Shown: positions 10,246 to 63,130, counted from the first letter of the stretch. The stretch: DNA of 64,000 bases from an uncultured Acidobacteriaceae bacterium (GCA_937879855.1 CALFMO010000063.1:13996-77995); one strand, 5' to 3'. The notes: generated by a model from the sequence alone, not told the origin. Made by a program: numbers and translations.

Positions 10246-10316
10246 TGAAGCATATTGTTTCATTAATGAAACGCAACTAAACCTATCTTGACGTTGTGTC
10301 CGCACCTTAAATAACA
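10246..10316 (+). promoter_or_regulatory. GAAAC/GTTTC element site a plus candidate promoter
   Basis: The element is TGAAGC-atatt-GTTTCA-ttaa-TGAAAC (10246-10272). GTTTCATTAATGAAAC within it is a perfect 16-bp palindrome. TTGACG (10288-10293) follows 15 nt downstream. The -10 is weak (ATAACA after a 17-nt spacer). The element lies upstream of the GH94-like gene. Confidence 0.4.
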
Positions 10317-10592
10317 TGTCGCGAATCAGTGCCTGTAAACAGTTGCGGAAGCTAAAGCCTGCATCTTTCCGACGGTTCCAAGATAGGGGCAAGGAATGTA
10401 TTACTCGAAGGCGTTGCGGATTTCGACGGATTCCTCTAGCACGATCTCCGATGTAGAAGGAAATGCGCAGAGGGGATGCCAAAGGAATTGGGCTCGACTT
10501 GAGCTATTTCGCCTTGGGCATCATTCTTGTTTAAATTGTGGACGCGAGACGGAGGCTTTGGACTCTTCGAAGAGTGTCTATGAAGGTGCTTA

Positions 10593-13439
10593 ATGGATCG
10601 TCGTCGATTTCTTAACGCTCTCGGGGGACTTGCCTTCGGGGGAATGTCCGTTCGTAGTTTACGCTCCGTCGCAGCCATCCCAGTTCCATGGGCAATCAAC
10701 AATGATGTGCTTCAACCGTCTAAGCCTTATGGTTCCGGGCACTTTGGCGAGTGGATCGAAGATCAGTTTGGACTCCCTGCCTATTTATACACTTGTGACC
10801 AGACGATAGATCCTAAAGCTGTCAGCCCTGTTTATAAGGTATGGCGTTCTCCTACGGATCATTCGCACCAAGTCGGCAACGATCGAGTTATCGCTGTCGC
10901 CTCGAATTATGGCCATGTGCAAGTCCGGCAGGATGAGGGAGCGCCGAAGTTTCTTAATGACTACTCTCCTCAGCGCAGCCAGTACGGTGGCGGGATCGGC
11001 TATTTGACCGATGGCAAAGTTGTATTAAGCACGTTCTATCCCGGCAACGCCGAAACCTTTGAGCGGATATTTGGAATGGGCTACTTCCAAAAGAAAGTCA
11101 CAGGCGGTAATTACTCTGTCGATCAAATAGTCTTCGCGCCGTTCGGTGACGATCCTTTGATCATCAGCCAGGTCACAATCAAACATCGCGGCAGGTCGGC
11201 CGCGGATCTCCGTTGGGTGGAATACTGGGGCTGCCAACAGTATCAGTTCTCTTACCGCTCGTTCCTGCAGGCCAGCATTGAAGGTGCGATAGGCAGGACT
11301 CCGGAACTGCGCCGTAAGTTTGCGGACCGGTTTGCACATCGATTCCATGTTTTGGATGGCAACGCCGGGCTGTTGGAGTCCAAACATTTTCTGGGGCGCT
11401 CCGCCGAGGACGAGTTAGCATGGCGAGATGTGCCACGTCTTGCGACCCAATGGGAGGGATGGTTAACCGAACCCGCCAAACCACCGAACGATGAAGTTAC
11501 GATGGAAGATATTACACCGCCGCCGACATTTCTCGTTTCCTTGGATGCCCCAGCTGACGGTTGGGCGACTAGCGGCGAGAGTTTCTTCGGCGCAGGCGGC
11601 GTACATCAACCTGCAGGTCTCGGTCGCGGCCTGGGTAGGGACGTGACCGCCACTGGTCCTGAGAGTGTCTTGCTGCTGGAGCGGCGCTTGCATCTTGCTC
11701 CGGGCGAGAGCCGCACGCTTTACTTTGCCTACGGGTACCTCCCCGAGGGATTCGAACTCAAATCATTGCTGCAGAAGTATCAATCAGACACCGATAAACT
11801 CTGGGAGGGCTCATGTCATGCTTGGAAAGCGGATGGTCCGCGGCTTCGCGTGGATTCCGAACCCTGGGCCGAACGCGAGGTCTCCTGGCACCACTACTAT
11901 CTTCGAAGCAATCTTACCTACGACAGTTTCTTTCGAGAGCACATGCTCACGCAAGGGGCGGGCTATTCGTATCTCTACGGGACCAATGACGCCCCCGAGG
12001 ATCCGTTGCAACAAACTTTACCTTTGGTGTTTGGCTTTCCAGCGATGGTCAAAGAAGTCTTGCGTTATACGCTCAAGGAGGTGCAGCCGGACGGCCGCAT
12101 CCCATACGGAATTGTGGGTCACGGAACCCTTATGCCGACACGCCAGCTTAACAGTAGCTATGAGTTATGGCTGCTCTTACTGGCGAGCGAGTATGTCCTG
12201 GGCACACGCGATGCAGCCTTTCTGGATGAGCGCATTCCAACCTATCCGATCTATGGACCCACAGCCGGCCAAGATACTGTGCGCAACCTTTTGGCTCGTT
12301 GCTATCGCCACCTCGTAGAAAAAACCGGGACCGGCGAGCATGGTCTGATTCAGCTTCTGAACGGCGACTGGAACGACAGTCTTGCCATGTGGCATACGTT
12401 GTTGCCGAAGCATCGAATGGGAGAAATCGTTCCTGGCACTGAGAGCGTCCTCAACTCTGCCATGGCGGGGTATGTTTTTGAGCATTATGCGCGGTTGCTT
12501 AGCTATACCGGCGAGACGGACTCGGCGGCTGAGGCCCGGCGCCGGGCCGAGATGCAGCGGCAGGCGTTGCGCGCCCAATGGACAGGTCGATGGTTCCGAC
12601 GGGCATGGCTCACACGTGAAGCGGGTTGGTTAGGCAATGAGCAAATATGGTTGGAGCCGCAGTCTTGGGCCATCATTGGGGGCGCGGCAACGCCCGAGCA
12701 AGTGGATGTGCTGGTCCCGGCGGTCGATCAATTACTGCGCCGACCTTCGCCCATTGGGGCCATGGACGTGGATAAGGTTGAGCCGGCGGCAATTATGGGC
12801 AAGGACGGCGGGGTCTGGCCGTCTCTCAACGGTATTTTGGCCTGGGCGCTGTCCCGGGTAGACGGAAAAATGGCTTGGGATGAGTGGAAGAAGAACTCGC
12901 TCGCATGCCACGCCACCGCCTATCCCGACCTCTGGTACGGCATCTGGAGTGGTCCGGACGTGTATAACTCAATTCTCTCCAAATATCCCGGGCAGACCTA
13001 TTTCAACGGAGCTCTTCTCGGCCCTGACGCCAGCAAAGCAGCTGATTCCCTGGAGGGCAATCCCAACGGGACCGATTTTCCGGTCATGAACATGCACTCG
13101 CACTCGGAGCAGCTGTATGGTGTAGCAAAGTTGCTAGGGATCGAATTTACCGAACGGGGAGTGACTCTGGCTCCGGTTCTGCCTTTTGACGCTTACCGCT
13201 TCCGCTCGCCACTAATAGGAGTGGAAAAGTCGAGCGAAGGGTATGAAGGCTGGTACAACCCTTCCGTCGCAGGCACGTGGACTATCGTCTTGCGCTTGCC
13301 GGCCATAGAGGCCGAAAAGGTAAATCATCTCGAAGTTGGTGGGATGCCCCAAGCTCTCACGCGTACGGCGGAAGGAGCTTTCGAGCTTCGCGGTGCCAGT
13401 AGACCTGGCAAACCACTGAGCTGGTCCGTCGGGATATAG
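10593..13439 (+). CDS. Tat-signal (alpha/alpha)6-barrel glycoside hydrolase/phosphorylase-like protein (GH94-like)
   Basis: 948-aa ORF with a twin-arginine N-terminus (MDRRRFLNALGGLAFGG). The motif LLNGDWNDSL resembles the GDWND motif I associate with GH94-type (glycosyltransferase-36 superfamily) catalytic domains. Size and architecture fit large GH94-like proteins. Confidence 0.6.
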   Translation: MDRRRFLNALGGLAFGGMSVRSLRSVAAIPVPWAINNDVLQPSKPYGSGHFGEWIEDQFGLPAYLYTCDQTIDPKAVSPVYKVWRSPTDHSHQVGNDRVIAVASNYGHVQVRQDEGAPKFLNDYSPQRSQYGGGIGYLTDGKVVLSTFYPGNAETFERIFGMGYFQKKVTGGNYSVDQIVFAPFGDDPLIISQVTIKHRGRSAADLRWVEYWGCQQYQFSYRSFLQASIEGAIGRTPELRRKFADRFAHRFHVLDGNAGLLESKHFLGRSAEDELAWRDVPRLATQWEGWLTEPAKPPNDEVTMEDITPPPTFLVSLDAPADGWATSGESFFGAGGVHQPAGLGRGLGRDVTATGPESVLLLERRLHLAPGESRTLYFAYGYLPEGFELKSLLQKYQSDTDKLWEGSCHAWKADGPRLRVDSEPWAEREVSWHHYYLRSNLTYDSFFREHMLTQGAGYSYLYGTNDAPEDPLQQTLPLVFGFPAMVKEVLRYTLKEVQPDGRIPYGIVGHGTLMPTRQLNSSYELWLLLLASEYVLGTRDAAFLDERIPTYPIYGPTAGQDTVRNLLARCYRHLVEKTGTGEHGLIQLLNGDWNDSLAMWHTLLPKHRMGEIVPGTESVLNSAMAGYVFEHYARLLSYTGETDSAAEARRRAEMQRQALRAQWTGRWFRRAWLTREAGWLGNEQIWLEPQSWAIIGGAATPEQVDVLVPAVDQLLRRPSPIGAMDVDKVEPAAIMGKDGGVWPSLNGILAWALSRVDGKMAWDEWKKNSLACHATAYPDLWYGIWSGPDVYNSILSKYPGQTYFNGALLGPDASKAADSLEGNPNGTDFPVMNMHSHSEQLYGVAKLLGIEFTERGVTLAPVLPFDAYRFRSPLIGVEKSSEGYEGWYNPSVAGTWTIVLRLPAIEAEKVNHLEVGGMPQALTRTAEGAFELRGASRPGKPLSWSVGI

Positions 13440-13514
13440 CTGAATTGTAAAGCACCTTCGAGACGTGAAGATGAAGACATAGTCAGAGATAGCTGACCGA
13501 GCGACGTCGGTTGC

Positions 13515-14714
13515 ATGATTAATAAGACAGAGTTACCCATGCCAACACTGCTGGCACGCCACTACTCGCGTAATGAATTGGAGGCACGGTTTGGCGACCT
13601 CTCGCAGGTCGCCGGAGTAACTATGGTAACTCTTTCAGATGGCGCGGCGCGCGGCGTGCGGGCTATAGTGTTCCGAACCGGGTCAGGGCTCGAGTTCTGG
13701 GTGTTGGTGGACCGGGCGTTCGACATTGCGAAATGCCAGTTTCGTGGGGTCGAGATTGGTTGGCAGTCCCCGGTAGGGGTGCGCGCGCCTTGGTTCCACG
13801 AAGTAAACGACGAGGCGGGCGCCAGTTTCTTGAGATCTTTTTCTGGCTTTCTGGTCACATGCGGGCTCGACCACGCCGGAGCAGCCTATCGAGATTCCGC
13901 GAATCGCTACTTTGCCCCCGACAGAACCAGCATCGATCAGCCAATGCACGGCCGAATCGCGTCCACGCCTGGCCAGTTGGTTGCCTATGGGCATGAGTGG
14001 CGCGCGGATCGCTGCGTTTTGTTTTGCGAAGGCGTGGTGAAACAGGCGGCGGTATTCGGTGAGCACCTGGTACTAACGCGCCGCTACGAAACTGAGGTGG
14101 GCGCGTCTTCTTTTGTTGTTCGCGATGTGGTACGCAACCATAGTTTCTCCGTTACACCGCATATGCTCCTCTATCACATTAACCTTGGCTTTCCTTTGCT
14201 CGACGAAGGTGCGGAATTCGTAGCTCCGACACGGGGCATACGATGGGCGTTTCGTGACGCAAGGCCCGAGGGCATCGGCTACCGTTTTCAACAGGGACCG
14301 CGTGACGAATGCGTTGAGCAAGTGCATGTTCACCACCCAGTTGAAGACGTGGATGGACAGGTTCGCGCGGCGCTAATTAACAGGAATCTGGGAGAAGGAG
14401 CTCTCGGCCTCTCCGTGGAATTCAACCGAAAGCAACTGCCCTACCTGCTCCAATGGCAGAACTTTCAGGCGGGCTCCTATTGCGTCGCGATCGAGCCGAG
14501 CACGTTTCACCCCCTCGGCCGCCCGCACGCGGAAGCTCACGGAGAACTCGCATGGCTGAAACACGGCGACGAGCGCGTCTACGACCTGCGCTTCTCTGTA
14601 CTCAGCGGCTCGAGCGAAATATCGAGATTTGAAAATGCCGTGCGCAAGGTAGTTCCTGACATTCCAGATCCCTTTGCAGAACCGGATGAAGGATTTGGCA
14701 TGGCTACTAGGTAA
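13515..14714 (+). CDS. aldose 1-epimerase-like (DUF4432-type) protein
   Basis: 399-aa ORF. Size, beta-rich composition and segments such as GLEFWVLVDRAFDIAKCQFRGVEIGW and HMLLYHINLGFPLL resemble the galactose-mutarotase-like DUF4432 family. The start is uncertain (ATG 13515 or 13539). Confidence 0.5.
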   Translation: MINKTELPMPTLLARHYSRNELEARFGDLSQVAGVTMVTLSDGAARGVRAIVFRTGSGLEFWVLVDRAFDIAKCQFRGVEIGWQSPVGVRAPWFHEVNDEAGASFLRSFSGFLVTCGLDHAGAAYRDSANRYFAPDRTSIDQPMHGRIASTPGQLVAYGHEWRADRCVLFCEGVVKQAAVFGEHLVLTRRYETEVGASSFVVRDVVRNHSFSVTPHMLLYHINLGFPLLDEGAEFVAPTRGIRWAFRDARPEGIGYRFQQGPRDECVEQVHVHHPVEDVDGQVRAALINRNLGEGALGLSVEFNRKQLPYLLQWQNFQAGSYCVAIEPSTFHPLGRPHAEAHGELAWLKHGDERVYDLRFSVLSGSSEISRFENAVRKVVPDIPDPFAEPDEGFGMATR

Positions 14715-14857
14715 TGGAACGCGATTCCAGATTTTGGGAACGGGTTTTTCAGCGCGGGCCTCTCAACGAATCGCGCTGACGTCACGGGTCGCACCGCCGC
14801 GGCGGTTGGATGTTGGCCACGAAGTCAGGCTTGCGCTGAATTTTGCGAAATCGAGGT

Positions 14858-15976
14858 ATGAAAGTGAAAAGACGAGAGTTTTTGACCCAGGCGTGTTTGA
14901 TCACTGCCGGTCAACTGATGGCGGGGGGGGCGCGGCTCGCGCAGGCGATCTTGAAGCGCGCTGCGAATAGGCCTTCTTCGTCAGGTGTGGAAACGAAATG
15001 CAGGTCATTAGAAATTCGCCTCATGGGTGCGAAGAGCCCCGTGCTGGATCGGGCGGTCGAAATCCTCGGCGCCAGAATCTATGAGCGCTGCGGGGTGAAG
15101 CCTGAATTCGGGGGCACAGCTGAGTGCAATGTTGAACTCGCGGTTCAGCCAGGAATCGGTAGGGAAGGCTTTCTCATCGAAGATGCGGCCCGGCGTTCAG
15201 TGCGTATCATCGGCAACGACAGCCGGGGGCTTCTCTATGGAGTCGGGAAGTTCTTGCGAAGTAACAATTACCATGATGGTTTCTTCACGCTGGGGAATTG
15301 GACAGGAACCTCACTGCCTGACAAACCATTGCGGGGAGTTTGTACTGTCCCCCATTTTTTCAATTTCTATCACGTAGCGCCGATTGAGCAGATGCAGCAT
15401 TACATGGAAGACCTTGCCTTATGGGGGTTTAACCTGATCGTCTTTGGTTTTGATATCCACAAGTTTGAGAGCATCCAGGATCCGGCGGCCCAGGCGATGC
15501 TCAGGCGCATGAATGCGATTGGGAGGATCGCAAAGAGCCTAGGCCTGGATGTCGGCATGGAAATCGCGGTGAACGACGGGTACGCGAACAGTCCGGAGGC
15601 GATGCGCGCCGACTGGACCGCCGGCCACGATGGGTACATCCATGAGCTTGCGGCTCACTATCATCTGGAACTCTGCCCCAATAAGCCGGGCGCCAAAGAG
15701 ATGTTGTTGCAATGGCGGCGGGAAACGCTCCAGGCGTTCAAGGATGTGGGGCTCGATTATGTTATTCCCTGGCCCTACGACAATGGCGGCTGCACCAATT
15801 CACAGTGTAAGCCTTGGGGAGCGAATGGATTTCTGACTCTCTCGCAGCCGATCGCAGAAATGGCCCGGAGTACGATTCCGGGATGCAGGGTCATCCTGTC
15901 GACTTGGCTCTTTGACTACTTTACGTCGGGCGAATATGTGGGGCTAGAGGAGAGGTTCGGCCTGTGGGCGGCATGA
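14858..15976 (+). CDS. Tat-signal putative glycoside hydrolase (GH20b/GH67-N-like lid plus TIM-barrel-like region)
   Basis: The start is ATG 14858, preceded by GAGG. The twin-arginine signal is MKVKRREFLTQACLITAGQLMAGGARLAQA. The segment REGFLIEDAARRSVRIIGNDSRGLLYGVGKFLR resembles the N-terminal domain of GH20/GH67/GH115-type enzymes. The functional call is weak. Confidence 0.45.
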   Translation: MKVKRREFLTQACLITAGQLMAGGARLAQAILKRAANRPSSSGVETKCRSLEIRLMGAKSPVLDRAVEILGARIYERCGVKPEFGGTAECNVELAVQPGIGREGFLIEDAARRSVRIIGNDSRGLLYGVGKFLRSNNYHDGFFTLGNWTGTSLPDKPLRGVCTVPHFFNFYHVAPIEQMQHYMEDLALWGFNLIVFGFDIHKFESIQDPAAQAMLRRMNAIGRIAKSLGLDVGMEIAVNDGYANSPEAMRADWTAGHDGYIHELAAHYHLELCPNKPGAKEMLLQWRRETLQAFKDVGLDYVIPWPYDNGGCTNSQCKPWGANGFLTLSQPIAEMARSTIPGCRVILSTWLFDYFTSGEYVGLEERFGLWAA

Positions 15977-16143
15977 TCTCGCCCGTTTTGACTCCGGTGC
16001 TGGCGGCATACGTGGGATGGAAAAACGCACTGTACGTAGCCGCGGCTTGGCACTTGTGGGCGCGACATTATGGTTAGGTATTTCGCCGAGCTTGTCAGAT
16101 GATCCCTGCATGCAGGAATTCGAGCGATCTTCTGACATCTTGC

Positions 16144-17430
16144 ATGTCCACTATGACAATTAGCGAACACATTCCACTTTCACGGATGCAGTTTCTGGAG
16201 AGAACAGGCCCGAGCGTTCAGGGGTTGAGCAACCTTGATTTGGAGATTCACAACTCCCTCTCTTCTCTGAATATTCCGCCTGAAAAGCTTCTTGGGCGGA
16301 AGATTGCAATTACCGTGGGGAGCCGCGGCATCGCCAGTCTGTTCGAGGTTACTCGTGCGACTTGTGAGTGGTTGAGAAAACAGGGAGCCGTGCCGTTCGC
16401 TTTTCCGGCCATGGGAAGCCACGGAGGCGCGACCGCCGAAGGTCAGCGTGAAGTGCTCGAAGGATATGGAATTACACGCGACTCTATCGGCGCGCAAATC
16501 TGCTCTTCCATGGAAACGGTGTCGCTCGGTTCGACCTCGGAGGGTTTCGGGGTCTTCATGGACCGCAATGCGTTTGATGCCGATGCAATTTTGGTGATGA
16601 ATCGAGTCAAGCCGCATACCGATTTCTCCGGGGCCGTCGAAAGCGGGCTTCTGAAGATGATGGCAATCGGCATGGGCAAAGCTACTGGCGCACGTGAAGC
16701 GCATCTGTGGTTTCGGAAATACGGTTTTGAACCCGTAATTCGTTCCATGTCCGAAAAAGTGCTGGCAAGCGGCAAGATCCTTTGCGGACTGGCGCTCATT
16801 GAAAACGAAGTTCATCAGATTGCAGACGTTCGCGCCAGCCTGCCAGGCGAGATTGCGGCCCAGGAACAAGCTGCACTTACAATTGCACGCGCCTTGGTTC
16901 CCCGCATTCCTTTCCGGAAAATTGATCTTCTGATTGTGGACGAGATCGGAAAAAATATCAGCGGCGCCAGCATGGACACCAAGATTATTGGCCGGGGTCT
17001 AGACCCAGCACAAATGCCTCCCGAAGGTCCGCAGGTTCGAATCATTTACGCACGAGACCTTACGCCAGTATCGGAAGGAAACGCGACCGGCGTGGGACTT
17101 GCCGATGTGATTCACGAGCGGTTGTACCGGCAGATTGACCACGAAAAAACCGCCATCAATCTTCGAACTTCTCTCAACCTTCCGGTCTCCCGAACTCCGA
17201 TACATTTGACCTCCGATCGAGATGCGCTGGATTTCGCTTTTGGCTGCCTGGGCAGCCCAGCGCCGAACGAGCAGCGCACGGTATGGATTCGCAATACGCT
17301 AAGTTTGGCACGTATCGGCGTCTCAGAGCTGCTCGCGCGCGAAAGCGCAGATCTCAAGGGCTGGCGCATGACTCCGGACGCGCTGGACCTGAAGTTCGAT
17401 GCAAACGGGAATGTTGACTCCCCGCTGTGA
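16144..17430 (+). CDS. LarA-N-like (DUF2088-type) domain protein, assignment tentative
   Basis: 428-aa ORF starting MSTMTISEH. The segment GRKIAITVGSRGIA...AMGSHGGATAEGQ...NRVKPHTDF resembles proteins annotated as lactate-racemase-domain proteins. The canonical LarA SDHTRP motif is absent, so this is at best a divergent member. Confidence 0.35.
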   Translation: MSTMTISEHIPLSRMQFLERTGPSVQGLSNLDLEIHNSLSSLNIPPEKLLGRKIAITVGSRGIASLFEVTRATCEWLRKQGAVPFAFPAMGSHGGATAEGQREVLEGYGITRDSIGAQICSSMETVSLGSTSEGFGVFMDRNAFDADAILVMNRVKPHTDFSGAVESGLLKMMAIGMGKATGAREAHLWFRKYGFEPVIRSMSEKVLASGKILCGLALIENEVHQIADVRASLPGEIAAQEQAALTIARALVPRIPFRKIDLLIVDEIGKNISGASMDTKIIGRGLDPAQMPPEGPQVRIIYARDLTPVSEGNATGVGLADVIHERLYRQIDHEKTAINLRTSLNLPVSRTPIHLTSDRDALDFAFGCLGSPAPNEQRTVWIRNTLSLARIGVSELLARESADLKGWRMTPDALDLKFDANGNVDSPL

Positions 17431-17498
17431 GGCGGGCTGATTTCTCGCGGTCCTGCGGGAGATCGTGAATCGGTATGAAGAAAGACACGGAGGGAACA

Positions 17499-18227
17499 AT
17501 GCGGGAGGACTTTCGAGCGGCACGAGTAGATTTAGCCGCCGTGCTGCGGTGGTCTAGCCGTTTGGGCTATCAACAAGGAGTCTGCAACCATTTCAGTTTT
17601 GTTCTGCCGGGCGAAAACAATATGTTCCTGGTAAATCCCGAGGGATTTTTTTGGTCGGAGCTGACTTCCAGCAGCCTGCTGTTATGTGATCTGGATGGCA
17701 ATATAATCGAGGGATCCGGCAGAGTGGAGCAGACGGCATTCTGTTTGCACGCTCCCATCCATCGGCATAATAAGAACGCAAGGGCTGTGCTACACAGCCA
17801 CACTCCGTACACGACAGCGCTTTGTCTGATCGAGGGTGGGAAGGTCGACCCGGTAAACATAACTGGCTTCCAATTCTCCGGCAAAATCGCATACGACGAC
17901 AATTGTCAGGGCGGGGCCCTCGCGACTAGCGAAGGCGATCGGGAAGCGGAGATTCTGGGCGACAACAACATCTTGATGATGCGCAATCATGGTCCGATTG
18001 TTGTGGGCCCCACCATTGCCGCCGCTTTTGATCGTCTTTATTATTTAGAGGAGGTCTGTAAGCGTCAGATTCTGGCAATGTCGACGGAGAAGCGACTACA
18101 GCAGGTTCCTTCGCCCGTGGTTGCGCAGCTTTCTGAGGATATTTCTTTGTACGATGCTTACGCGCAAAAGCATCTTGCCGCCATCAAGCGGGTCCTGGAC
18201 CGCGAAGAGCCTGAATACTCTCAGTAA
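17499..18227 (+). CDS. class II aldolase/adducin family protein
   Basis: Motifs HSHTPYTTAL and MRNHGPIVVGPTIAAAFDRLYYLEEVC are typical of class II aldolase/adducin N-terminal domain proteins. ATG 17499 is preceded by GGAGGG. The upstream ATG 17475 is also possible. Confidence 0.8.
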   Translation: MREDFRAARVDLAAVLRWSSRLGYQQGVCNHFSFVLPGENNMFLVNPEGFFWSELTSSSLLLCDLDGNIIEGSGRVEQTAFCLHAPIHRHNKNARAVLHSHTPYTTALCLIEGGKVDPVNITGFQFSGKIAYDDNCQGGALATSEGDREAEILGDNNILMMRNHGPIVVGPTIAAAFDRLYYLEEVCKRQILAMSTEKRLQQVPSPVVAQLSEDISLYDAYAQKHLAAIKRVLDREEPEYSQ

Positions 18228-20233: not shown

Positions 20234-20342
20234 CTCGATCTTCCTGTCTGCCCTTTGCTTTCCCGACAAGTTAGTGTTTGTCGGGACCGGCAGCATCTGG
20301 GCTTGACGAACCAGAGTCTTGCCGCGACCCGTACATAATAGA

Positions 20343-20368
20343 TGAAACATAATGTTTCACAAACAATA
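20343..20368 (-). promoter_or_regulatory. GAAAC/GTTTC element site b
   Basis: TGAAAC-ataat-GTTTCA lies at 20343-20359. On the minus strand a TATTGT hexamer (plus-strand acaata, 20363-20368) lies 3 nt upstream of the palindrome. I found no convincing -35. The site is about 110 nt upstream of the PhyH start and also upstream of the divergent APC permease gene. Confidence 0.4.
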
Positions 20369-25584: not shown

Positions 25585-25687
25585 CTTCTCTCCTCGTTTC
25601 GATCTTTGTCTGACTAGCTTCGCGGCTCGGATCAAATTGTTGACCGACATCTACAGCCAGATGGAGCTAACAACACAGAAGTTACGA

Positions 25688-27463: not shown

Positions 27464-27525
27464 ATGTGAAACGAACTGTTTCACATGAAAGATCGGAGAA
27501 TACGACCACTTATACTCCTTGTCAA
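27464..27525 (-). promoter_or_regulatory. sigma70-like promoter with GAAAC/GTTTC element site c just downstream of -10
   Basis: On the minus strand, TTGACA (27525-27520) is followed by a 17-nt spacer and TATTCT (27502-27497). After 10 nt comes the palindrome ATGTGAAAC-gaact-GTTTCACAT (27464-27486, 9-bp arms). Confidence 0.55.
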
Positions 27526-30542: not shown

Positions 30543-30559
30543 TGAAACGTGCCGTTTCG
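30543..30559. promoter_or_regulatory. weaker GAAAC/GTTTC palindrome (site i) overlapping a GC hairpin
   Basis: TGAAAC-gtgcc-GTTTCG lies at 30543-30559. GAAACGtgcCGTTTC is a perfect 15-bp palindrome. It overlaps the hairpin GTGCCG-ttt-CGGCAC (30549-30563). It sits 80-100 nt upstream of the TPR gene start. Confidence 0.25.
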
Positions 30560-30618
30560 GCACGGTTTAGCCAGACGGCGGCAATCCCTATGAATAAAAC
30601 CTGAGGCCAATCGACGTA

Positions 30619-30692: not shown

Positions 30693-30787
30693 GTGCGGCG
30701 AACTGAGGGGCGCAGTTCAAAGTCTGGCTCACAGGCAACCGTCTCTATTACGTGCTTCGCGAAGTGCAAAGAGAGGGGGAGACCAAC

Positions 30788-43005: not shown

Positions 43006-43831
43006 ATGCGCAACAAATCGAAAGCCAATGTGAGGAGGGCGGGCTTTCTAAAAGTGGTAGAAAAGGTTTTTCGACTGCTGGAAACCCTGGCACAATCGGA
43101 AGCGGGCGTTCGAGTCAGCGATCTTGCGCGAACTCTTAGGCAGCCGAAAGCCTCGGTGTATCGGATACTGCTCACTTTGGAAACTCTAGGATATGTGAGG
43201 CAGGATGCTGACACCCTGGCGTATCAGTGCACCGCGCATGCAGCGTGGTTAACCCCGCAATCAGGCGAACGAGACGTTGCGGAGGATCGCGCTCGCGAAT
43301 GGAACGATTGCTCGCCAGGTTTGAGCAAACTGTAAATTTGGTGATTTTTGACCGGGACCGGATCTTCTATATCGAAATTCTTGAGGGGCTGCGCTCAATC
43401 CGCCTGGCCGCCACTCCGATGACCTATGCGCCACGCACTCGGCTGCAGTGGGAAAGTCGATACTCGCTTTTCTGCATCCGTCCGAGGCGTTGCAGATCTT
43501 GAAAGAACACGCTCTTGAGAAACACACTTCAAAGACTGTGGTATCGGAAAGAATGATTCTAGTGCAACTGGCCCAGGCGCGAGAGCACGGTTACGCGATC
43601 GATGATGAAGAGATTGAAATCGGAGCCCGCTGCATCGCGGCACCCATTTTTGATGGCCATGGCCGGCCCGTGGCGGCACTCAGTATCTCGGGGCCGGTCA
43701 ATTATGTGAGGGCCAGCATGTGTTTGAAAATGGCGAAGTCGCTGAAAGAAGCTAACAGCGGTATTTCCAAGCAATTTGGTTTCGCCGAGAGCAGACGGAA
43801 TGAGTCGAAAGAGGCAGATTTCTGTTTCTAA
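43006..43831 (+). pseudogene. IclR-family transcriptional regulator broken over at least three reading frames
   Basis: The N-terminal wHTH (VEKVFRLLETLAQSEAGVRVSDLARTLRQPKASVYRILLTLETLGYVRQ) is in frame 1 (43006..43335). The effector-domain start (MERLLARFEQTVNLVIFDRDRIFYIEILEGLRSIRLAATP) is in frame 0. The remainder (ATHSAAVGKSILAFL...GYAIDDEEIEIGARCIAAPIF...ALSISGP) is in frame 2 (to 43831). The total of 826 nt is not a multiple of 3. Confidence 0.7.
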
Positions 43832-49906: not shown

Positions 49907-51034
49907 CTATTCTCGGAGAGGAGCTTCGTCTTTCTGTGGATAGAAGTCCGAGATGTTGTCCGTGGTCAGAACGACATGATCCGTGTGAGTCACAAGAGGA
50001 GGATGTTCTCCTTCGCATATTTTTATAGCCAGCTTAAGCACGCGCATCCCATAACTTTCAGGAAAATAAGCTACGGACGCTCTCAGTGGACCGCCCCGCA
50101 AAATATGGCGACGGCCCTCAGCCGTTCCTCCCTGACCGACCACCACCGAACGGTCCTGCCAACCAGCTTCTCGCAAGGCGCGTGTCGCGCCGATGGCCAG
50201 CGGATCAGAAAAGGCCGCCACCATTAAATAAGGCGCCCGTCGCACCAATTTTTGAATGAAACGTTTGGTTAAGGTATAGCCCTCCTGAGCCGTTACTCCT
50301 GGCGCGGCGAATTCGATCTCGGGCGCGGTCCAGCCTCGCGCTCGCTGACCGAGCGCGTCGAGTAAACCGACCTTGCGAGTGTTCTGCGTCGATCCTAATC
50401 CTTTCGAAGGAATAATAAGGCAGGTGACTGCGCTTCCTCGGGAATGCTTACGCGCAAATCGCAATAAATAGTCGCCGGCGAGCCAACCTGTCTTGTAGCT
50501 GTCGGCGCCGAAATAATAGGCTCCCGGCTGAGGAAAATTGAGCGCAATCGCGGGGACATTGGCGCTGTGGCATTTCGCGGCAATCACGTGGCTCAGCGCT
50601 TCATTGCGCTGATGCTCAATCAATACGTCGATACCTTCACTCAAAAGCTGCTCGGCGTTTGCCAACGCTTTCGAAGGGTTGTCTTCATTGTCAGCGGCAA
50701 TAAGCGCGACTCCAAACTGCCGCGCAGCCGCCACCACGCTTCGCGTTACCTCGCTGGCAAATGTGATTTTTCCGAGAGCGGCATACCCAATTCGTAGTCT
50801 CTTTCGCGAGGGCGCGAGTACATAGCGTCTCTTGCCAGGTGCGCGTGTGACATAACCGCGTTTTGCCAACGTGTACACGAAGCGAAACGCGGAGGTGTAA
50901 GGCAGCTTGGCGCGCTTGGCGATTTCAGTGATCGAGAGTTGCTCCGTGTTGTCGGTAAAGCTCTCCAATACATCGAGGGTTTTGGCCGCAGCTTCTATGA
51001 AATAGCGATTTTTGTCGCCGAACTCAGAGTCCAT
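49907..51034 (-). CDS. hybrid transcriptional regulator: IclR-type winged HTH fused to a LacI/PBP type-I sugar-binding-like domain
   Basis: The N-terminus YFIEAAAKTLDVLESFTDNTEQLSITEIAKRAKLPYTSAFRFVYTLAKRGYVTR matches the IclR-type HTH pattern. The remaining ~290 aa (RIGYAALGKITFASEVTRSVVAAARQFGVALIAADNEDNPSKALANAEQLLSEGIDVLI...VAAFSDPLAIGATRALREAG) look like a periplasmic-binding-protein/LacI C-terminal fold. Confidence 0.7.
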   Translation of the reverse strand: MDSEFGDKNRYFIEAAAKTLDVLESFTDNTEQLSITEIAKRAKLPYTSAFRFVYTLAKRGYVTRAPGKRRYVLAPSRKRLRIGYAALGKITFASEVTRSVVAAARQFGVALIAADNEDNPSKALANAEQLLSEGIDVLIEHQRNEALSHVIAAKCHSANVPAIALNFPQPGAYYFGADSYKTGWLAGDYLLRFARKHSRGSAVTCLIIPSKGLGSTQNTRKVGLLDALGQRARGWTAPEIEFAAPGVTAQEGYTLTKRFIQKLVRRAPYLMVAAFSDPLAIGATRALREAGWQDRSVVVGQGGTAEGRRHILRGGPLRASVAYFPESYGMRVLKLAIKICEGEHPPLVTHTDHVVLTTDNISDFYPQKDEAPLRE

Positions 51035-57576: not shown

Positions 57577-57723
57577 GGGCGCCTGAGGCATCTGTTCCAA
57601 CGTCCCGAAAGTTCATTGCCGAAGATTAAGGAGCATTTCTGATGTTGGTCCGCACTGCTGAAATCTTTAGTGGTTGTTGTTGACGTCCGGCAGTGCCATG
57701 CAGAAGGGAAAGGGACAAGTTTC

Positions 57724-59634
57724 ATGGGAAACGGTCAATTCAGCCGGCGTGATTTCATTCAGAAGGCAACCGCGGCAGCGCTAGCCGCCACTTCAGTCCC
57801 ACTTTCGGCACAGCCTCTTCCGACTGCGCCTCCGCCCGCGGACGCCGGCGAAACGTCTACGTCCGAGCCGGCAAAGTGGCAGGCAATGCTTTCGAAGCCG
57901 GAACATGAAATTCGCACCTTGATTGACGTGAAGGTTCCCATGCGGGACGGGATCAAACTCTCCGTCAATGTATTTCTGCCAACAAAAGAAGGGCGCTGGC
58001 CGGTAATTCTGGAACGCAGTCCCTATGGCGCCAAGAATACCGATTGGTACGTGAATCGGGCCATCTACTACGCGCGCCGCGGATATGTCTACGTTTTGCA
58101 GGATGTGCGTGGCCGCTACGATTCGGAGGGGACATTCCACCCGTGGGATCAGGAAATCGATGACGGCCGTGATTCTCTGGACTGGTGCGGCACTCAATCC
58201 TGGTCGACCGGCAGTGTCGGCATGATGGGCATGTCCTATATGGGCCTGGTTCAATGGCTCGCCGCTCCCACTGGATCGCCATACCTGAAGACGATTATTC
58301 CTCACGCCTGCGCCGCTGACTATTTCATGTACGGAATGAATTACACCGGCGGCGCATTTATGCATTACATCAACCTGCCATGGGGAATGGGCAACAGTGC
58401 TCACTCCCGGCAAAGCGCACTCCCCTATGATTGGGAAAAAGCTCTGCGATTACTGCCGATTTTGACGGCGGACGAGGTGCTTACCGGGCGGGCGGTTGAT
58501 TTTTATCACGAGTGGGTGTTGCACTCCAGCTATGACGATTACTGGAAGAAAGTCAGCAATTTCGGGAAATATCAGAAGATGGATATTCCTATTCTGCAAA
58601 TTTGCGGTTGGCTCGATCCTCATGTTCGCTCTCTGATTGCCAACTATGAGGGTATCCAGAAGAACGGAACGCCGCGCGCGATTCGCGAGCAGAAAGTGAT
58701 CATTGGCCCATGGATTCACACTGACAAACCGGTGCAATCGTATGGCGATCTAGACTTCGGGTCCGACTCCACGATCGATATGTACGAGATTTTCTTGCGT
58801 TGGTGCGATCATTGGCTGAAAGGGATCGACAATGGCGTCGAAAAAGAACCGCCGTTGCGACTATTTACCATGGGATCCAATAAGTGGAGGACATCGGAGA
58901 AATGGCCGCTCCCGGAAACTGTGTGGATGAAGTACTACCTGCACAGCAGCGGGAAAGCAAACAGTTTCTACGGTGACGGGAGATTAAGCCAAACAATTCC
59001 CGCCGACAATCAGCCGGCCGATCATTATGTATACGATCCTGCTGACCCGGTTTTGACGCTGGGGTCTGATGCCAATGGGCAAATTTTGCCGCTGGACAAT
59101 CGGCCGGTTGAAAGAAGAGATGATGTCCTCGTCTACACGACAGACACGCTGAGCGAAGATCTCGAGGTGACGGGTCCGACGCAGGCGCACATTTACGCCA
59201 GCACTTCTGCAACCGACACCGATTTCACGGTGAAGCTTCTCGATGTGTATCCGGAAGGCAAGGCCATCAATGTGTTTGAAGGGATCATTCGGGGGCGCCT
59301 CCACGATCCTGGCGCAATTCGTACAGGGTTGCCGGCCCCGGGCCAATATGAGCATCCGAAATTGCTTGAACCAGGCAAGGTCTACGAATTCATCGTGGAA
59401 GTGGGGGTTACCAGTACCGTATTTCTAAAAGGACACCGGCTTCGCATTGAGGTATCCAGTAGCAACTTCCCCCACTATGACAGAAATTTAAATAACGGCG
59501 GGCAGCTGGGAGTGGATCCACGGATCGTGGTAGCAAAACAGACGGTCTATCACAACACTCGGTATCCGTCGTATCTTGAGCTGCCGGTGATTCCGGGGAA
59601 GGGCAGCCGATCCTCGCGAAGCAATGAGGGTTAG
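57724..59634 (+). CDS. Tat-signal CocE/NonD family hydrolase, paralog 3 (more divergent)
   Basis: The twin-arginine signal is MGNGQFSRRDFIQKATAAALAATSV. The nucleophile elbow is GMSYMG. The C-terminus is HRLRIEVSSSNFPHYDRNLNNG. Confidence 0.85.
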   Translation: MGNGQFSRRDFIQKATAAALAATSVPLSAQPLPTAPPPADAGETSTSEPAKWQAMLSKPEHEIRTLIDVKVPMRDGIKLSVNVFLPTKEGRWPVILERSPYGAKNTDWYVNRAIYYARRGYVYVLQDVRGRYDSEGTFHPWDQEIDDGRDSLDWCGTQSWSTGSVGMMGMSYMGLVQWLAAPTGSPYLKTIIPHACAADYFMYGMNYTGGAFMHYINLPWGMGNSAHSRQSALPYDWEKALRLLPILTADEVLTGRAVDFYHEWVLHSSYDDYWKKVSNFGKYQKMDIPILQICGWLDPHVRSLIANYEGIQKNGTPRAIREQKVIIGPWIHTDKPVQSYGDLDFGSDSTIDMYEIFLRWCDHWLKGIDNGVEKEPPLRLFTMGSNKWRTSEKWPLPETVWMKYYLHSSGKANSFYGDGRLSQTIPADNQPADHYVYDPADPVLTLGSDANGQILPLDNRPVERRDDVLVYTTDTLSEDLEVTGPTQAHIYASTSATDTDFTVKLLDVYPEGKAINVFEGIIRGRLHDPGAIRTGLPAPGQYEHPKLLEPGKVYEFIVEVGVTSTVFLKGHRLRIEVSSSNFPHYDRNLNNGGQLGVDPRIVVAKQTVYHNTRYPSYLELPVIPGKGSRSSRSNEG

Positions 59635-59681: not shown

Positions 59682-60149
59682 TTATTTCTGTGGCACGAGA
59701 GTGTCCTGAGAGTTCACCGCTTGCCACCGCCCATGACGCTTCACGAAGACATCGGTCCAGACATAGTGACCACTGGTGTTGTTCGCTATGTTTGAACTCT
59801 TCTGCTCCGCGCTACCGGTCACGACAGCAGTGTCTCCGAACACACGGACCTTCACGTCGGAGAGAGTTTCAAATTCGAGGCCGCCGCCTCCCGACTTGAG
59901 GTCAGATAGATGCTGGGCTTTGGTCTCTACACCGGTCGCGCCTAGATAAGTCCAATCGTCCGCCAGTATGCGATCCAAAACCTTTGTGTCCTTGCCATTG
60001 TCTGCCTTCGCCCATTCGTTTTCGAGATTTACAAACATTTGCTGAAGGCTGGCTGCGTTGGCTTTTGATTTTGGCTGTGTATTTGGCTCCTGGCACAGGG
60101 CGAGCGGCACAACAACGATCAGGACCGTAATTGCCAAGCTTCGTTGCAT
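59682..60149 (-). CDS. secreted DUF4440/SnoaL-like (NTF2-fold) protein, paralog of 62473..62922
   Basis: ATG 60149 is preceded by AGAGGTGGA. The signal peptide is MQRSLAITVLIVVVPLALCQ. It shares long identical stretches with the other copy: ADDWTYLG, ETKAQHL and TAVVTG...WTDVFVKR.G.W.AVNSQDT. Confidence 0.75.
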   Translation of the reverse strand: MQRSLAITVLIVVVPLALCQEPNTQPKSKANAASLQQMFVNLENEWAKADNGKDTKVLDRILADDWTYLGATGVETKAQHLSDLKSGGGGLEFETLSDVKVRVFGDTAVVTGSAEQKSSNIANNTSGHYVWTDVFVKRHGRWQAVNSQDTLVPQK

Positions 60150-60195
60150 GGGATCCACCTCTTTGAACTTGTCGATGTGGCGAAAAAGATTGACA

Positions 60196-60248
60196 TGAAA
60201 CATACTGTTTCACGGATGGACAATAAAAGCACCTGCGTATATTGTCAA
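60196..60248 (-). promoter_or_regulatory. sigma70-like promoter with GAAAC/GTTTC element site e just downstream of -10
   Basis: On the minus strand, TTGACA (60248-60243) is followed by a 17-nt spacer and TATTGT (60225-60220). After 7 nt comes the palindrome TGAAAC-agtat-GTTTCA (plus-strand TGAAACATACTGTTTCA, 60196-60212). It lies 47 nt upstream of the DUF4440 start. Confidence 0.55.
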
Positions 60249-60302: not shown

Positions 60303-61227
60303 GTGACGGAGAATCTTTTCAAGGTCTTTCTCAATGGAAATATGGTCGCGCGGAACGAAGCATGGGTGAGCATTGATAGTGTCGCAGTCGAATATGCGGC
60401 CATGGTGTTCGAAGGGATTCGAGGATACTGGAACGAACGCGAGTGTCAGCTCTATGTCTTTCGGCTCGCGGATCACGCCCAACGATTGAAAGAATCCGTC
60501 ATACTGATTGGGGATGGAAACTGAGCTCGGCGCAGCCGACTTTTCTCGGACGGTGTTGCAAGCAATCGAGGCGAACGGCGTAAGCCAGCATGTCCACATC
60601 CGGCAATTAGTGTAGGTCGATGCCGGCGGCGAGATGTTTACCCAAGGACCGGTTGGCGATGCCGTAGTGGTGACCCCAAAGTCGGGGTGGTTTGCCGGCG
60701 GTCATGAAGGAGCCATGCGGGCGTAAGCAGCGGCAGCGAATCAGCGACAACTCAAGTCCTCCCCGTATCAAATGCGCGGCGAATTCCCAAAATGGACGTT
60801 TGGCTTCTGCTTCAGGCGAAGACGGATGGGTGCGCCTTAAATCCTGGATCAGGAGGTCACGCAGAAGAAGGCCCATGTTCTCCGAAATCCAAGGATATTA
60901 GGGAGCGGAGTGTTTCCATAGGTGATGGTGAGCATCGATCTTGGCGTAAGGCATTCGAGGTCCTTAATTGTTTTCCAGTCGGCCAACGATTCAAGTTTGA
61001 TCTGTTATTCCAGCCACCACGCTCTGGAGTCTTGGCGTTTGCCGTGCCTGAACCATAATCGATCCATCGAATCCTGTTCGCTTGAGTTCGGGTCCAAGAT
61101 GCCCCCGCAGAAATTCCCGGCGAAAGCACGACATCGAATCATCGATCCAGATAAATTCGTCTGGTGTATAACGCCAGAAATGCTGGTGAGCCTCGATGCG
61201 CGTGAGCGCGGTTCACACTGTCTTTGA
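60303..61227 (+). pseudogene. ilvE: decayed branched-chain amino acid aminotransferase gene
   Basis: The N-terminal part is intact-looking (FLNGNMVARNEAWVSIDSVAVEYAAMVFEGIRGYW...FRLADHAQRLKES). A +1 frame change follows near 60510. After that, a single frame carries recognisable remnants (HIRQLV*VDAGGEM vs the YIRPLIFVG pattern; VVVTPKSGWFAG). That frame has four in-frame stops: TAG 60613, TAA 60724, TAA 60838 and TAG 60919. The catalytic-lysine region is not conserved. Confidence 0.7.
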
Positions 61228-62091
61228 ATAGCGCTGCTCTGAGAAGTTCGCGACGCGTTGCCGCGATTCGCCAAGCCCTTCAATCCCCAACTCGACAACA
61301 TCTCCAGATTTGAGATACTGCGGCGGCTTCATTCCGAGCCCAACCCCGGCGGGCGTGCCGGTGCTGATGACGTCTCCGGGAAGCAACGTCATGAATTCGC
61401 TCACGTACGACAGGAGTGTCGCAACTTCGAAAATCATATTGGCCGTGGAACTGTTTTGGCGAATCTCCCCGTTAACTTTAAGCCACATTTCTAGATTGCT
61501 CGGATCACGAAGCTCGTCCGGAGAGGCAAGAAACGGACCCACGGGCGCGAAAGTATCCGCGCTCTTGCCTTTCACCCACTGACCTCCGCGCTCGAGCTGA
61601 AAACTGCGTTCAGAATAGTCGTTGTGCAGGACGTATCCAGCCACGTAGTCGAGCGCCTTTTCTGTCGGGACATAGAGCGCAGCCTTGCCCACCACTAGCG
61701 CAAGTTCGACTTCCCAGTCCACCTTGCTACCATTCCTCGGAATCACCACGTCATCATTAGGTCCGACTAAGGAGGTTGTCGCTTTAAAAAAGATGACCGG
61801 TTCCTTCGGAATCGCGGCCCCGGTCTCTGCCGCATGATCACGATAGTTGAGCCCGATACAAACGATCTTGCTGGGACGACAAATCGGCGGCCCCAAACGT
61901 ATTGGGGATGTGACGCGCGGAGCCGAAGAGAAGTGGGTCTTCAGCCAGCCGCGAAGAGCATCCATGCCACCTCGCGCGAAGAATATCTCGTCATAGTCCG
62001 ACACGAAATCTGAGACATCCAGACGGGAGCCGTCGTCGAGAAGGACCCCCGGCCGCTCTCTGCCAGCTTCGCCGAATCGAATGAGCTTCAA
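61213..62091 (-). CDS. fumarylacetoacetate hydrolase (FAH) family protein
   Basis: The product is 292 aa. KIVCIGLNYRDHAAE, FFKATTSLVGPNDDVVIP, DWEVELALVVGK and LPGDVISTGTPAGVG are typical FAH-family motifs. Confidence 0.85.
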   Translation of the reverse strand: MKLIRFGEAGRERPGVLLDDGSRLDVSDFVSDYDEIFFARGGMDALRGWLKTHFSSAPRVTSPIRLGPPICRPSKIVCIGLNYRDHAAETGAAIPKEPVIFFKATTSLVGPNDDVVIPRNGSKVDWEVELALVVGKAALYVPTEKALDYVAGYVLHNDYSERSFQLERGGQWVKGKSADTFAPVGPFLASPDELRDPSNLEMWLKVNGEIRQNSSTANMIFEVATLLSYVSEFMTLLPGDVISTGTPAGVGLGMKPPQYLKSGDVVELGIEGLGESRQRVANFSEQRYSKTV

Positions 62092-62139
62092 TGTTTTACT
62101 CTCGCAATGCGAGCTTAATGTGCATCGCCAGCTAAGGTT

Positions 62140-62473
62140 CTAGCTCAAAAACATGTTCCATCGCAGCCATTTGTCGTCAGGCTTTGATTCCGGCAACGCT
62201 CGCTGAAATCTCCACATGAGCTGCTCCCAAGCCTGCACTCTCGATTCTGCTGATCGGCCTTCGCTTTCTTCTCAAACGAAAGTCTCTCATTTACTTCCAT
62301 AATCATGAACATGCGCGTGCCGAGCAGGTAAATGTCGAGATTCTCGATACCGGACTCCTTTAAGCCTTGCATGATCTCGAGCCAGATCTTCTCGTGAGGC
62401 GGAAACCGAGAAATCGACGAATCGCTTCGCCACGCCTGCGTGCCTCGACGCGGAAAGCATCAGCAGAGAACAT
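62140..62473 (-). pseudogene. rhaM: decayed L-rhamnose mutarotase-like gene
   Basis: Hand translation gives RhaM-like pieces in three frames. These are MFSADAFRVEA..., then PPHEKIWLEIMQGLKESGIENLDIYLLGTRMFMIMEV, then VQAWEQLMWRFQRALPESKPDDKWLRWNMFLS*. The total of 334 nt is not a multiple of 3. Its ATG shares one base with the stop of the upstream DUF4440 gene (TGATG). Confidence 0.6.
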
Positions 62474-62922
62474 CACTGATGAGTCAGCGGTGTGTCCTGG
62501 GAATTTACCGCCAGCCAATGTCCCTGACGTTTCACGAACACATCTGTCCACAAATAGTCTCCGCTGGTATCTTTACCGCTATTACTGCTCTTTTCGTGTT
62601 CGCGTCCAGTGACGACGGCGGTGTTTCCGAACAGTCGAACCTTCATGTCCATTAGGGTGATGGATTCGAGCTTGTCCTGCCCCGTTTTGAGTCCAGCCAG
62701 GTGCTGAGCTTTCGTTTCAAGTCCAACAGGGCCCAAATACGTCCAATCGTCGGCAAGCAATTTTCCCAGGGCGACTGCGTCCTTATTCTTGTCCGCCTCC
62801 GCCCACCGGTTCTCGATTTGTCTAAACATCTCCGTCACGCTGGCGTCTGCCTGGCTGGTTTGGCCCACAGCCCACGATACAGAGGCCGTAAAGAACAACA
62901 TAATCGCTATGCTTCGTTTCAT
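62473..62922 (-). CDS. secreted DUF4440/SnoaL-like (NTF2-fold) protein, paralog of 59682..60149
   Basis: ATG 62922 is preceded by GGGAGGG. The signal peptide is MKRSIAIMLFFTASVSWAVGQ. It is clearly homologous along its full length to the 59682..60149 product. Confidence 0.75.
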   Translation of the reverse strand: MKRSIAIMLFFTASVSWAVGQTSQADASVTEMFRQIENRWAEADKNKDAVALGKLLADDWTYLGPVGLETKAQHLAGLKTGQDKLESITLMDMKVRLFGNTAVVTGREHEKSSNSGKDTSGDYLWTDVFVKRQGHWLAVNSQDTPLTHQ

Positions 62923-63069
62923 GCGGTTTACCCTCCCTAATTCTGCCCAGCCGCCCGCTAAGGCCCCGAAAGCCTGCAAGAAAGAGATATGCCCCGCGAG
63001 CCAACCGGAAGCGAGCAGAAAGTCTGCCCGGACGATAGTTAACTGTCAAGCGAAAAAGCGGGACATATC

Positions 63070-63130
63070 ATTTCATTAATGAAACGCATCAAACTTCTCG
63101 CTTGACATGAATTCAAGCCGTTCGTAGTAT
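63070..63130 (+). promoter_or_regulatory. GAAAC/GTTTC element site f plus sigma70-like promoter of the cytochrome c gene
   Basis: ATTTCA-ttaa-TGAAAC lies at 63070-63085. After 16 nt come TTGACA (63102-63107), a 17-nt spacer and TAGTAT (63125-63130). On the opposite strand another TTGACA (plus-strand tgtcaa near 63045) lies 20 nt from the palindrome. The site therefore sits centrally in a divergent promoter region. Confidence 0.5.

Follow-up and report, generated by a model that had tools for sequence, protein, structure and literature searches.

Which factor reads the short element of GAAAC and GTTTC half-sites that recurs between the genes of a 64,000-nucleotide stretch of DNA from an uncultured Acidobacteriaceae bacterium (GCA_937879855.1 CALFMO010000063.1:13996-77995; the whole stretch is referred to here as the window)? 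Acidobacteria are abundant, mostly uncultured soil bacteria, and to our knowledge almost nothing is known about the control of transcription in this phylum. A preliminary description of the window had read the element as an operator shared by functionally diverse genes, had matched it to no described motif, and had seen no obvious cognate regulator beside any of its sites. The analysis supported the first of these statements as far as sequence comparison can and overturned the second, as the boxes, their flanks and the three-box layout resemble the motifs of the IclR family. We hold, with moderate confidence, that the sites fall into two classes (A and B) which act as operators of an IclR-family factor with a large nutrient-acquisition regulon, that the likeliest regulator is encoded by a group of IclR genes designated Y, and that one further site, w2, is a distinct operator belonging to a decayed IclR gene, X.

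Two promoter-anchored classes of a conserved element

The sites are lettered a to g, with w1 and w2 for two copies that had been described as weak. All sequences quoted in the preliminary description were found at the coordinates it gave, and the identical 18-mer of sites a and f and 17-mer of sites b and d are real. The dyad TGAAAC-N5-GTTTCA had three exact matches in the window (20343, 27467 and 60196), where about 0.003 would be expected per 64 kb from base composition arithmetic, and nine matches with up to two mismatches against a shuffle mean of 2.43, a count that none of 100 shuffles reached. GTTTCA-N4-TGAAAC matched exactly at two positions (10257 and 30630) and eight times with up to two mismatches (shuffle mean 2.77; 0 of 100 shuffles reached eight). 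On a gene map curated by hand, non-coding DNA makes up 12.6% of the window, and all nine matches with no more than one mismatch fell within it, in line with the earlier claim that the strong copies are intergenic.

A blind repeat finder recovered the same elements as family D3 (22 nt; sites a, b, c, d and e) and family D4 (30 nt; sites a, d and f). It found no longer shared flanks; the common sequence spans only 22-30 nt, and the flanks differ apart from the promoter hexamers. Elements this short are not repetitive extragenic palindromic (REP) sequences or miniature inverted-repeat transposable elements (MITEs), and the longer dispersed repeat that the preliminary description had raised as a possible source of the copies was not found. 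A search of the whole window with Rfam covariance models at their gathering thresholds gave 0 matches. Two stretches of the window, 1-9.7 kb and 43.8-59.6 kb, are free of sites, and the latter includes amino-acid catabolism genes, which argues that the element is specific to a regulon rather than a general promoter feature.

When the sites were aligned to their promoters, two architectures and one separate operator type were recognized in place of the single element, variously preserving different pairs of half-sites, that had been proposed earlier. Class A consists of three alternating boxes, GRTAC-N5-GTTTC-N6-GAAAC, upstream of a TTGACA -35 hexamer, which is followed after N17/18 by a -10 hexamer, usually TAGTAT. 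The scan yielded 34 distinct class A candidates, about 32 of them with the distal GRTAC box and 15 with a TAGTAT -10, and the gap to TTGACA measured 14-18 nt in 32 of the 34. Boxes 2 and 3 are nearly invariant. Box 1 is weaker and different; this distal box, previously given as TGAAAC, has the consensus GRTAC across the 34 sites. Class B is the 17-bp dyad TGAAAC-N5-GTTTCA, located downstream of the -10 in TTGACA-N17/18-TAnnnT promoters; the 13 distinct sites start 3-15 nt past the -10, ten of them at 9-13 nt. In the window, sites a, d, g and f belong to class A and sites c and e to class B, and site b overlaps a candidate core promoter. With the transcription start taken to lie about 7 nt past the -10, class A would span about -75 to -50 and class B about +3 to +30. 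The -10 also differs by class, being mostly TAGTAT and often preceded by CGTTCG in class A, and TAnnCT followed by CC in class B; this may reflect tuning of promoter strength or a further contact.

The third box could be examined in a metagenome scan with the pattern GTTTCA-N5-GAAAC-N14-18-TTGACA-N17-18-TAnnnT, in which boxes 2 and 3 and the promoter are fixed and box 1 is left free. The scan returned 111 stretches with 95 distinct matches. G[AG]TAC stood at the exact register of box 1 in 15 of the 95, against a chance expectation of 0.19, and since box 1 was not part of the pattern this excess validates the third box independently, with GRTAC rather than GAAAC as its consensus. Most of the 111 matches are unrelated conserved promoters or chance hits; about 20 keep the distal box, and the analysis drew on these alone. 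Two unrelated promoter-like modules were encountered among the retrieved loci (numbered with the prefix L). One, the highly conserved ccccgGTTTCAatcyGGAAAC-N14-TTGACActcartccgtaacatgtTAYTTT, occurs on many contigs with a GC fraction of ~0.55-0.62 (L100, L102, L103, L107, L111, L119-L121, L126, L148, L157, L159, L161, L167, L188, L190, L193, L194 and L197). The other, cttccaggtgccGTTTCAcgtaAGAAAC-N14-TTGACAgaaagctttaatg..TAGTCT, occurs on contigs of ~0.41 GC (L091, L099, L104, L144, L146, L153, L156, L158, L162, L164-L166, L169 and L171) and presumably represents a single promoter that is conserved in some abundant organism.

Conservation was investigated in the nearest relatives, which are metagenome-assembled genomes of uncultured Acidobacteriaceae or Terriglobia and soil metagenome contigs with proteins 76-86% identical to those of the window. 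Both classes were present in loci fetched through their proteins and not through the motif, namely L002 (by MR_MLE, 85%), L081 and L082 (by GH94, 86% and 80%), L198 and L201. An orthologue of site a, also of class A, is found upstream of the L082 GH94 orthologue. L081 contains a permease-GH94 operon with a site, and its PhyH and permease orthologues each have a class A site. In L105, L112 and L118 the element of site d recurs at the TonB receptor orthologues (72-83% identity), and the GH39-like orthologues in L090, L132, L135 and L198 have class A sites. Orthologues of both these window genes were among those downstream of the metagenome-scan hits, with 65-75% identity for the GH39-like gene. 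The element is thus conserved upstream of orthologues of the GH94-like, TonB receptor and GH39-like genes. In 219 kb of DNA from this clade the site density was 13.1 per 10 kb of non-coding DNA versus 1.39 in coding DNA, whereas in 1.23 Mb of unrelated loci it was 0.75 versus 0.45; the clade set was partly ascertained through the motif, and the protein-ascertained loci, listed site by site, give the same pattern. Lack of conservation before orthologues, lack of intergenic enrichment and a longer repeat were the three outcomes that the preliminary description had named as refuting it, and on all three points the result favored its reading. Class A and B sites were absent from the orthologous loci at 74% identity or less (L003-L007 and L083-L086), which indicates that the element is restricted to a clade, and they were likewise absent from 73 non-acidobacterial loci. 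Judged by these comparisons, the GAAAC/GTTTC element is a real, conserved and promoter-linked operator, and its regulon appears to be confined to one clade of uncultured Acidobacteriaceae-like bacteria.

Relation to IclR operators and the candidate regulator genes

The IclR family is described as using two motif types, group 1 with GKTYCRY-W3-4-RYGRAMC and group 2 with TGRAACA-N1-2-TGTTYCA (PMC8222616). For 32 orthologous groups the same study reported sites with three boxes that alternate in direction, each motif type being matched by one of the pairs; it cited PcaU, PobR and HmgR as experimental precedents and read such sites as evidence for two dimerization modes (PMC8222616). The elements described here share with these operators the boxes GRAAC/GTTYC and the flanks TGRAACA...TGTTYCA and GTTYCRY...RYGRAAC, and over the 34 class A and 13 class B sites both boxes and flanks agreed with the IclR types. 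They also share the alternating three-box layout, with one pair fitting group 2 and the other group 1, the period of ~21 bp from box 1 to box 3, and the presence of a putatively autoregulated regulator and of nearby IclR genes. Unlike in the IclR types, the middle box is shifted by 1 bp, so that class B reads TGRAACA-N3-TGTTYCA and boxes 2-3 of class A read GTTYCRY-W2-RYGRAAC. Box 1 is a distinct GRTAC, the two- and three-box forms occupy different, fixed promoter positions, and the regulon greatly exceeds the usual extent for the family, one or two adjacent operons. We treated the elements as a putative spacing variant of the IclR type in which the 21-bp distance between box 1 and box 3 is retained. 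The kind of operator would therefore be a known one, and the spacing, the distal box, the position-specific forms, the phylum and the size of the regulon would be new; no acidobacterial entries were present in the supplement of PMC8222616, as the phylum lay outside that study.

Other described systems resemble the element in part. KdgR, an IclR-family regulator of the gamma-proteobacterial pectin and sugar-acid regulon (box RWWGAAACGNCGTTTCAKKA), has a GAAAC...GTTTC dyad oriented as in class B and controls a multi-operon, carbohydrate-related regulon as a repressor, but its pentamers are spaced by N3 instead of N5 and no three-box upstream form has been described for it. The X and Y proteins scored 140-172 against the NCBIfam KdgR model, which is substantial but below its cutoff of 275, and they are not KdgR equivalogs. 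The LacI-family regulators PtxS (TGAAACCGGTTTCA) and Cra read the identical hexamer TGAAAC/GTTTCA in the class B orientation; their sites are even palindromes with N0-N2 spacing, a central CG and no third box, and a LacI-type operator was rejected on account of the N5 spacing and odd length found here, or the N4 in opposite orientation. CcpA at cre sites and CRP are analogous in function only. Each uses one operator type at two promoter positions to control many catabolic and uptake genes, activating upstream of the -35 and repressing within or downstream of the promoter, but these are unrelated protein families with unrelated half-sites, and in our element the two positions also use different box arrangements. 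Promoters of extracytoplasmic function (ECF) sigma factors (TGAAAC-N16-CGTA), LysR T-N11-A sites, the Fur 7-1-7 arrangement, and ARG and Rex boxes were rejected on spacing or orientation. Literature searches with the hexamer led to PtxS, parS, KstR and CRISPR repeats, none of which has this spacing and none of which is from Acidobacteria.

A tblastn search of all loci revealed IclR genes in L113, L140, L097, L123, L170 and L173, loci that had been fetched by DNA pattern alone. The IclR genes fall into three orthologous groups, X, Y and Z. Members of group Z (L097, L123 and L170) are divergent from a TonB receptor or another target, with a single GTTTCA-N4-TGAAAC dyad between the two genes. The dyad of L170 has a TTGACA to either side at a distance of 18 nt, as in the class A geometry. 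From this arrangement group Z appears to consist of local regulators.

Group Y proteins have 277 aa and are 50-60% identical to X. Members are P0140 (L198, on the same 508-kb contig as L002), P0138 (L201), L113 and L140, and L202 contains a divergent one. In L198, L201 and L113, Y closes an aminotransferase operon that has a class B site ahead of it, and sites of both classes are densely packed in the Y loci. Regulator genes are thus found next to the sites, Y behind class B and Z divergent from N4 dyads; within the window itself this holds only for w2 and the decayed X. If synteny with the L002/L198 contig held, Y would lie roughly 10 kb past the window's right end. The earlier statement that no cognate regulator adjoins any site therefore stands for the main sites, whose likeliest regulator is encoded outside the window, and does not hold for w2, since X lies in its operon; a hybrid regulator is also encoded in the window, at 49907-51034. 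Y has in addition a promoter of its own, TTGCCG-N17-TAGCCT, which ends 8-9 nt before the ATG (L198 9906-10020; L201 9906-10020) and suggests a leaderless Y mRNA, and in L198 and L201 the start codon of Y is inside a TGAAAC-N5-GATTC dyad.

The group X gene of the window (43006-43831, plus strand) carries +1, -2 and -1 indels within 200 bp relative to its orthologues and is probably a pseudogene. The other members are in L001 and L199; X is the third gene of an SDR-MR_MLE-IclR operon in the window and L199 and directly follows MR_MLE in L001. In L001 and L199/L200 this operon likewise has a conserved w2-type operator ahead of it, TGAAwC-N5-GTmsCr-N5-TGAAAC, with 5-6 nt separating the operator from the -35, and X is the likely partner of w2 rather than of the class A and B sites. 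L002 lacks X at the syntenic place and yet has class A and B sites, whereas L001 and L199 have an intact X with only the w2 operator and no class A or B sites. As X is decayed or absent where class A and B sites are kept and intact where they are absent, Y is the better candidate. Also broken by frameshifts or stops near the window's X are an L-rhamnose-mutarotase-like (rhaM) remnant and two tandem amidohydrolase_2-like starts (…IDAHQHFW… and …IDAHHHLW…), at 62145-62372 and 60590-61230 (minus). The long genes of the window are all intact, unlike X and the rhaM and amidohydrolase remnants, so that local pathway decay is indicated rather than assembly noise; the decaying pathway looks like a non-phosphorylative one for a 6-deoxy sugar of the fucose or rhamnose type.

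The hybrid regulator (49907-51034, minus strand) combines HTH_IclR with Peripla_BP_4, a periplasmic-binding-protein domain that binds sugars in the LacI manner. DAO and sarcosine-oxidase-like genes are its conserved neighbors (L001 17979-19103, L199 8953-10080, L002 ~16571-17683), and its upstream region has a GAGCGAATA-type sequence in the window and in L001. It is an unlikely regulator of the class A and B sites, being conserved in L001 and L199, which are free of them, and having a different upstream sequence.

Proposed mechanism and alternative explanations

Under the preferred reading, an IclR protein, probably Y, would bind both classes through its winged-helix domains, which would read the GRAAC/GTTYC boxes. 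At class B promoters the protein bound just past the -10 would block RNA polymerase and so repress, Y's own operon included. At class A promoters the protein would occupy boxes 2 and 3 in the manner of group 1 and make an auxiliary contact with box 1, and an IclR tetramer, or a dimer in an alternative dimerization mode, could touch the polymerase from upstream and activate, as the IclR activators PobR and PcaU do; class A sites might alternatively serve repression or anti-activation. A more specific version, in which one IclR protein is a global nutrient-scavenging regulator that activates in a three-box mode (tail-to-tail plus auxiliary box, at about -60) and represses in a two-box mode (head-to-head, at about +10), is offered tentatively and as a possibility only. 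The predicted regulon includes, in the window, at least the GH94-like operon, PhyH and/or the amino-acid permease, the 598-aa secreted protein with its S15 peptidase, the TonB receptor, the GH39-like/MFS/lactonase operon, two DUF4440 paralogues and the cytochrome c. Across the loci its classes are TonB receptors, glycoside hydrolases, transporters, peptidases, small secreted proteins, cytochrome c and sugar-acid enzymes.

Several observations weigh against an IclR factor of this kind. The spacing departs from the published one, with N3 in place of N1-2 and W2 in place of W3-4, and at least seven promoter regions within 64 kb are atypical for the family. The co-localization of the motif with IclR genes is circumstantial, as many of the loci were ascertained through the motif, and no Y gene was found within the window. 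The dyad at the Y start codon is a weak clue because it coincides with the conserved N-terminus MKQxD(S/A), and its second box would be GATGC in many Y proteins. Finally, the -35 boxes of class A promoters are close to consensus, which would be unusual if these promoters depended on an activator and makes activation at class A uncertain.

Two IclR-type proteins might instead share box 2, an activator resembling group Z on the N6 dyad at about -60 and the repressor Y on the N5 dyad, so that class A would work as an exclusive switch. Such a pair would suit the use of the N6 dyad alone by group Z at the same distance from the -35, the near invariance of boxes 2 and 3 beside a weaker GRTAC, and the restriction of class B and of the Y autoregulatory sites to N5 dyads. 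We nevertheless find it unlikely, since tblastn detected no Z-like gene in any locus of the clade, the fixed register of box 1 fits a single complex equally well, and in PcaU, PobR and HmgR it is one IclR protein that occupies three boxes (PMC8222616). The X gene at 43006-43831 could also be imagined as the regulator of all sites, since the window has no other canonical IclR gene, and since X stands in an operon behind a GAAAC-box site and has a recognition helix very similar to that of Y. Its three frame-breaking indels alongside well-preserved class A and B sites, its absence from L002, and its pairing in L001 and L199 with a w2-type operator that differs in spacing and position make this highly improbable.

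The likeness to IclR operators might also be coincidental, the true reader being of another family, for example a CRP/FNR-like global regulator. Global regulators such as CRP and CcpA typically have large regulons and exert dual control that depends on position, and GTTTC-N6-GAAAC is a 16-bp 5-6-5 dyad centered about -60 from the inferred start, as in the class I geometry of CRP. The half-site is, however, GTTTC and not TGTGA or TTGAT, and the N5 dyad and the third box have no counterpart in CRP. The genes beside the dyads in the pattern-retrieved loci were IclR and not CRP-family genes, although CRP genes were not searched for systematically, and the LacI-type readers of TGAAAC, PtxS and Cra, need N0-N2 spacing. 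A reader from outside the IclR family is accordingly judged quite improbable. We give next to no credence to an element that acts without a dedicated binding protein, as a REP or MITE, a hairpin in the 5' leader RNA or an ECF-sigma -35. As part of the transcript, a class B dyad could fold into a 6-bp hairpin, and TGAAAC resembles sigma-W-type -35 boxes. However, class A lies upstream of the -35 and is not transcribed from that promoter, the half-sites of both classes (34 class A and 13 class B sites) are conserved in sequence without the co-variation of a paired RNA and without an Rfam match, the shared sequence of 22-30 nt sits between unrelated flanks, and no CGTA/CGTC -10 is found at N16.

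Taken as operators of an IclR factor, the sites define a regulon by sequence, together with a candidate for its regulator, two kinds of promoter layout and the gene families that it would target. Most IclR regulators act locally, and an IclR regulon of this size would be unusual. As the forms are tied to different promoter positions, they offer a natural test of the two IclR dimerization modes, and if a single dual-mode IclR protein is at work, alternative dimerization could be tested on dozens of natural promoters. Should the simpler reading be true, the result would be one more IclR regulon, of value mainly for annotation.

Sites and genes of the window

The gene content of the window is acidobacterial and includes a TonB receptor with CarboxypepD_reg and OMP_b-brl_4 domains and FG-GAP/ASPIC proteins. 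The class A site a (10246-10272, plus strand) is a predicted three-box operator, TGAAGC-atatt-GTTTCA-ttaa-TGAAAC, 15 nt before a -35 TTGACG (10288-10293) with a -10 TAACAT (10312-10317). Its target is the operon 10593-18227, which encodes a GH94-like protein, DUF4432, a nickel-pincer isomerase and a class II aldolase. Site d (30619-30645, plus strand), with TGGTAC-ataat-GTTTCA-caaa-TGAAAC as its three boxes and TGGTACATAATGTTTCACAAATGAAAC as its 27-bp sequence, is followed after 17 nt by TTGACA (30663-30668) and by a -10 TACGAT (30687-30692), and precedes a TonB-dependent receptor (30752-34057) and then a gene of 711 aa. Site g (40604-40630, minus strand) reads CGATAC-aaact-GATTCA-tata-TGAAAC on the minus strand and lies 17 nt from TTGACA (40581-40586), with a -10 TAGTAT (40558-40563), ahead of the operon of a GH39-like gene, an MFS transporter and a lactonase (40513-36782). 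Site f (63059-63085, plus strand), GGGAC-atatc-ATTTCA-ttaa-TGAAAC, stands 16 nt before TTGACA (63102-63107), with a -10 TAGTAT (63125-63130), and serves a cytochrome c gene from ~63146. At 63044-63049 on the minus strand, 20 nt from the site f dyad, there is a second, divergent TTGACA, which points toward DUF4440 paralogue 2.

The class B site c (27467-27483, minus strand) is a TGAAAC-N5-GTTTCA dyad which begins 13 nt after the -10 of the promoter TTGACA (27520-27525)-N17-TATTCT (27497-27502); its target is an operon of a 598-aa secreted protein and an S15 peptidase. Site e (60196-60212, minus strand), likewise a class B dyad, begins 7 nt after the -10 of TTGACA (60243-60248)-N17-TATTGT (60220-60225) and has DUF4440 paralogue 1 (59682-60152) as its target. 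Site b is a perfect 17-bp two-box dyad, TGAAACATAATGTTTCA (20343-20359, no strand assigned), over a candidate minus-strand promoter of the PhyH gene, TTGTGA (20357-20362)-N16-TATTAT (20335-20340). An amino-acid permease gene (20482) lies ~120 nt downstream of it. Site b overlaps the first ATG of the longest PhyH open reading frame, the Pfam match of which begins at residue 49; together with the length of the orthologues (282-287 aa) this places the site upstream of the likely true PhyH start.

The two copies that had been called weak differ from each other. Site w1, TGAAACGTGCCGTTTCG (30543-30559, no strand assigned), is intergenic and has a perfect GAAAC-N5-GTTTC core, with no promoter assignable to it. 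A perfect hairpin, GTGCCG-TTT-CGGCAC (30549-30563), overlaps the right half of the w1 dyad. Its status as an operator is uncertain, and w1 could be an operator, a piece of a terminator-like structure, or both. Site w2, TGAATC-N5-GTAGCG-N5-TGAAAC (40770-40797, plus strand), is weak only as a copy of the main element and represents the separate operator type, with N5 then N7 as its pentamer spacing. It is located 5 nt before TTGACA (40803-40808), with a -10 TACTAT (40826-40831), and precedes the operon of SDR, MR_MLE dehydratase and IclR (X).

Two further observations concern the enzymes encoded in the window. The gene at 16099-17430, between DUF4432 and the class II aldolase, was identified as a nickel pincer cofactor-dependent isomerase, group 22, with 443.8 bits against a curated cutoff of 400 bits. 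Three paralogous S15 genes of the X-Pro dipeptidyl-peptidase family are present (23590-25650, 47789-49702 and 57670-59634), two of which share DNA stretches of 70-74% identity (repeat families D1 and D2).

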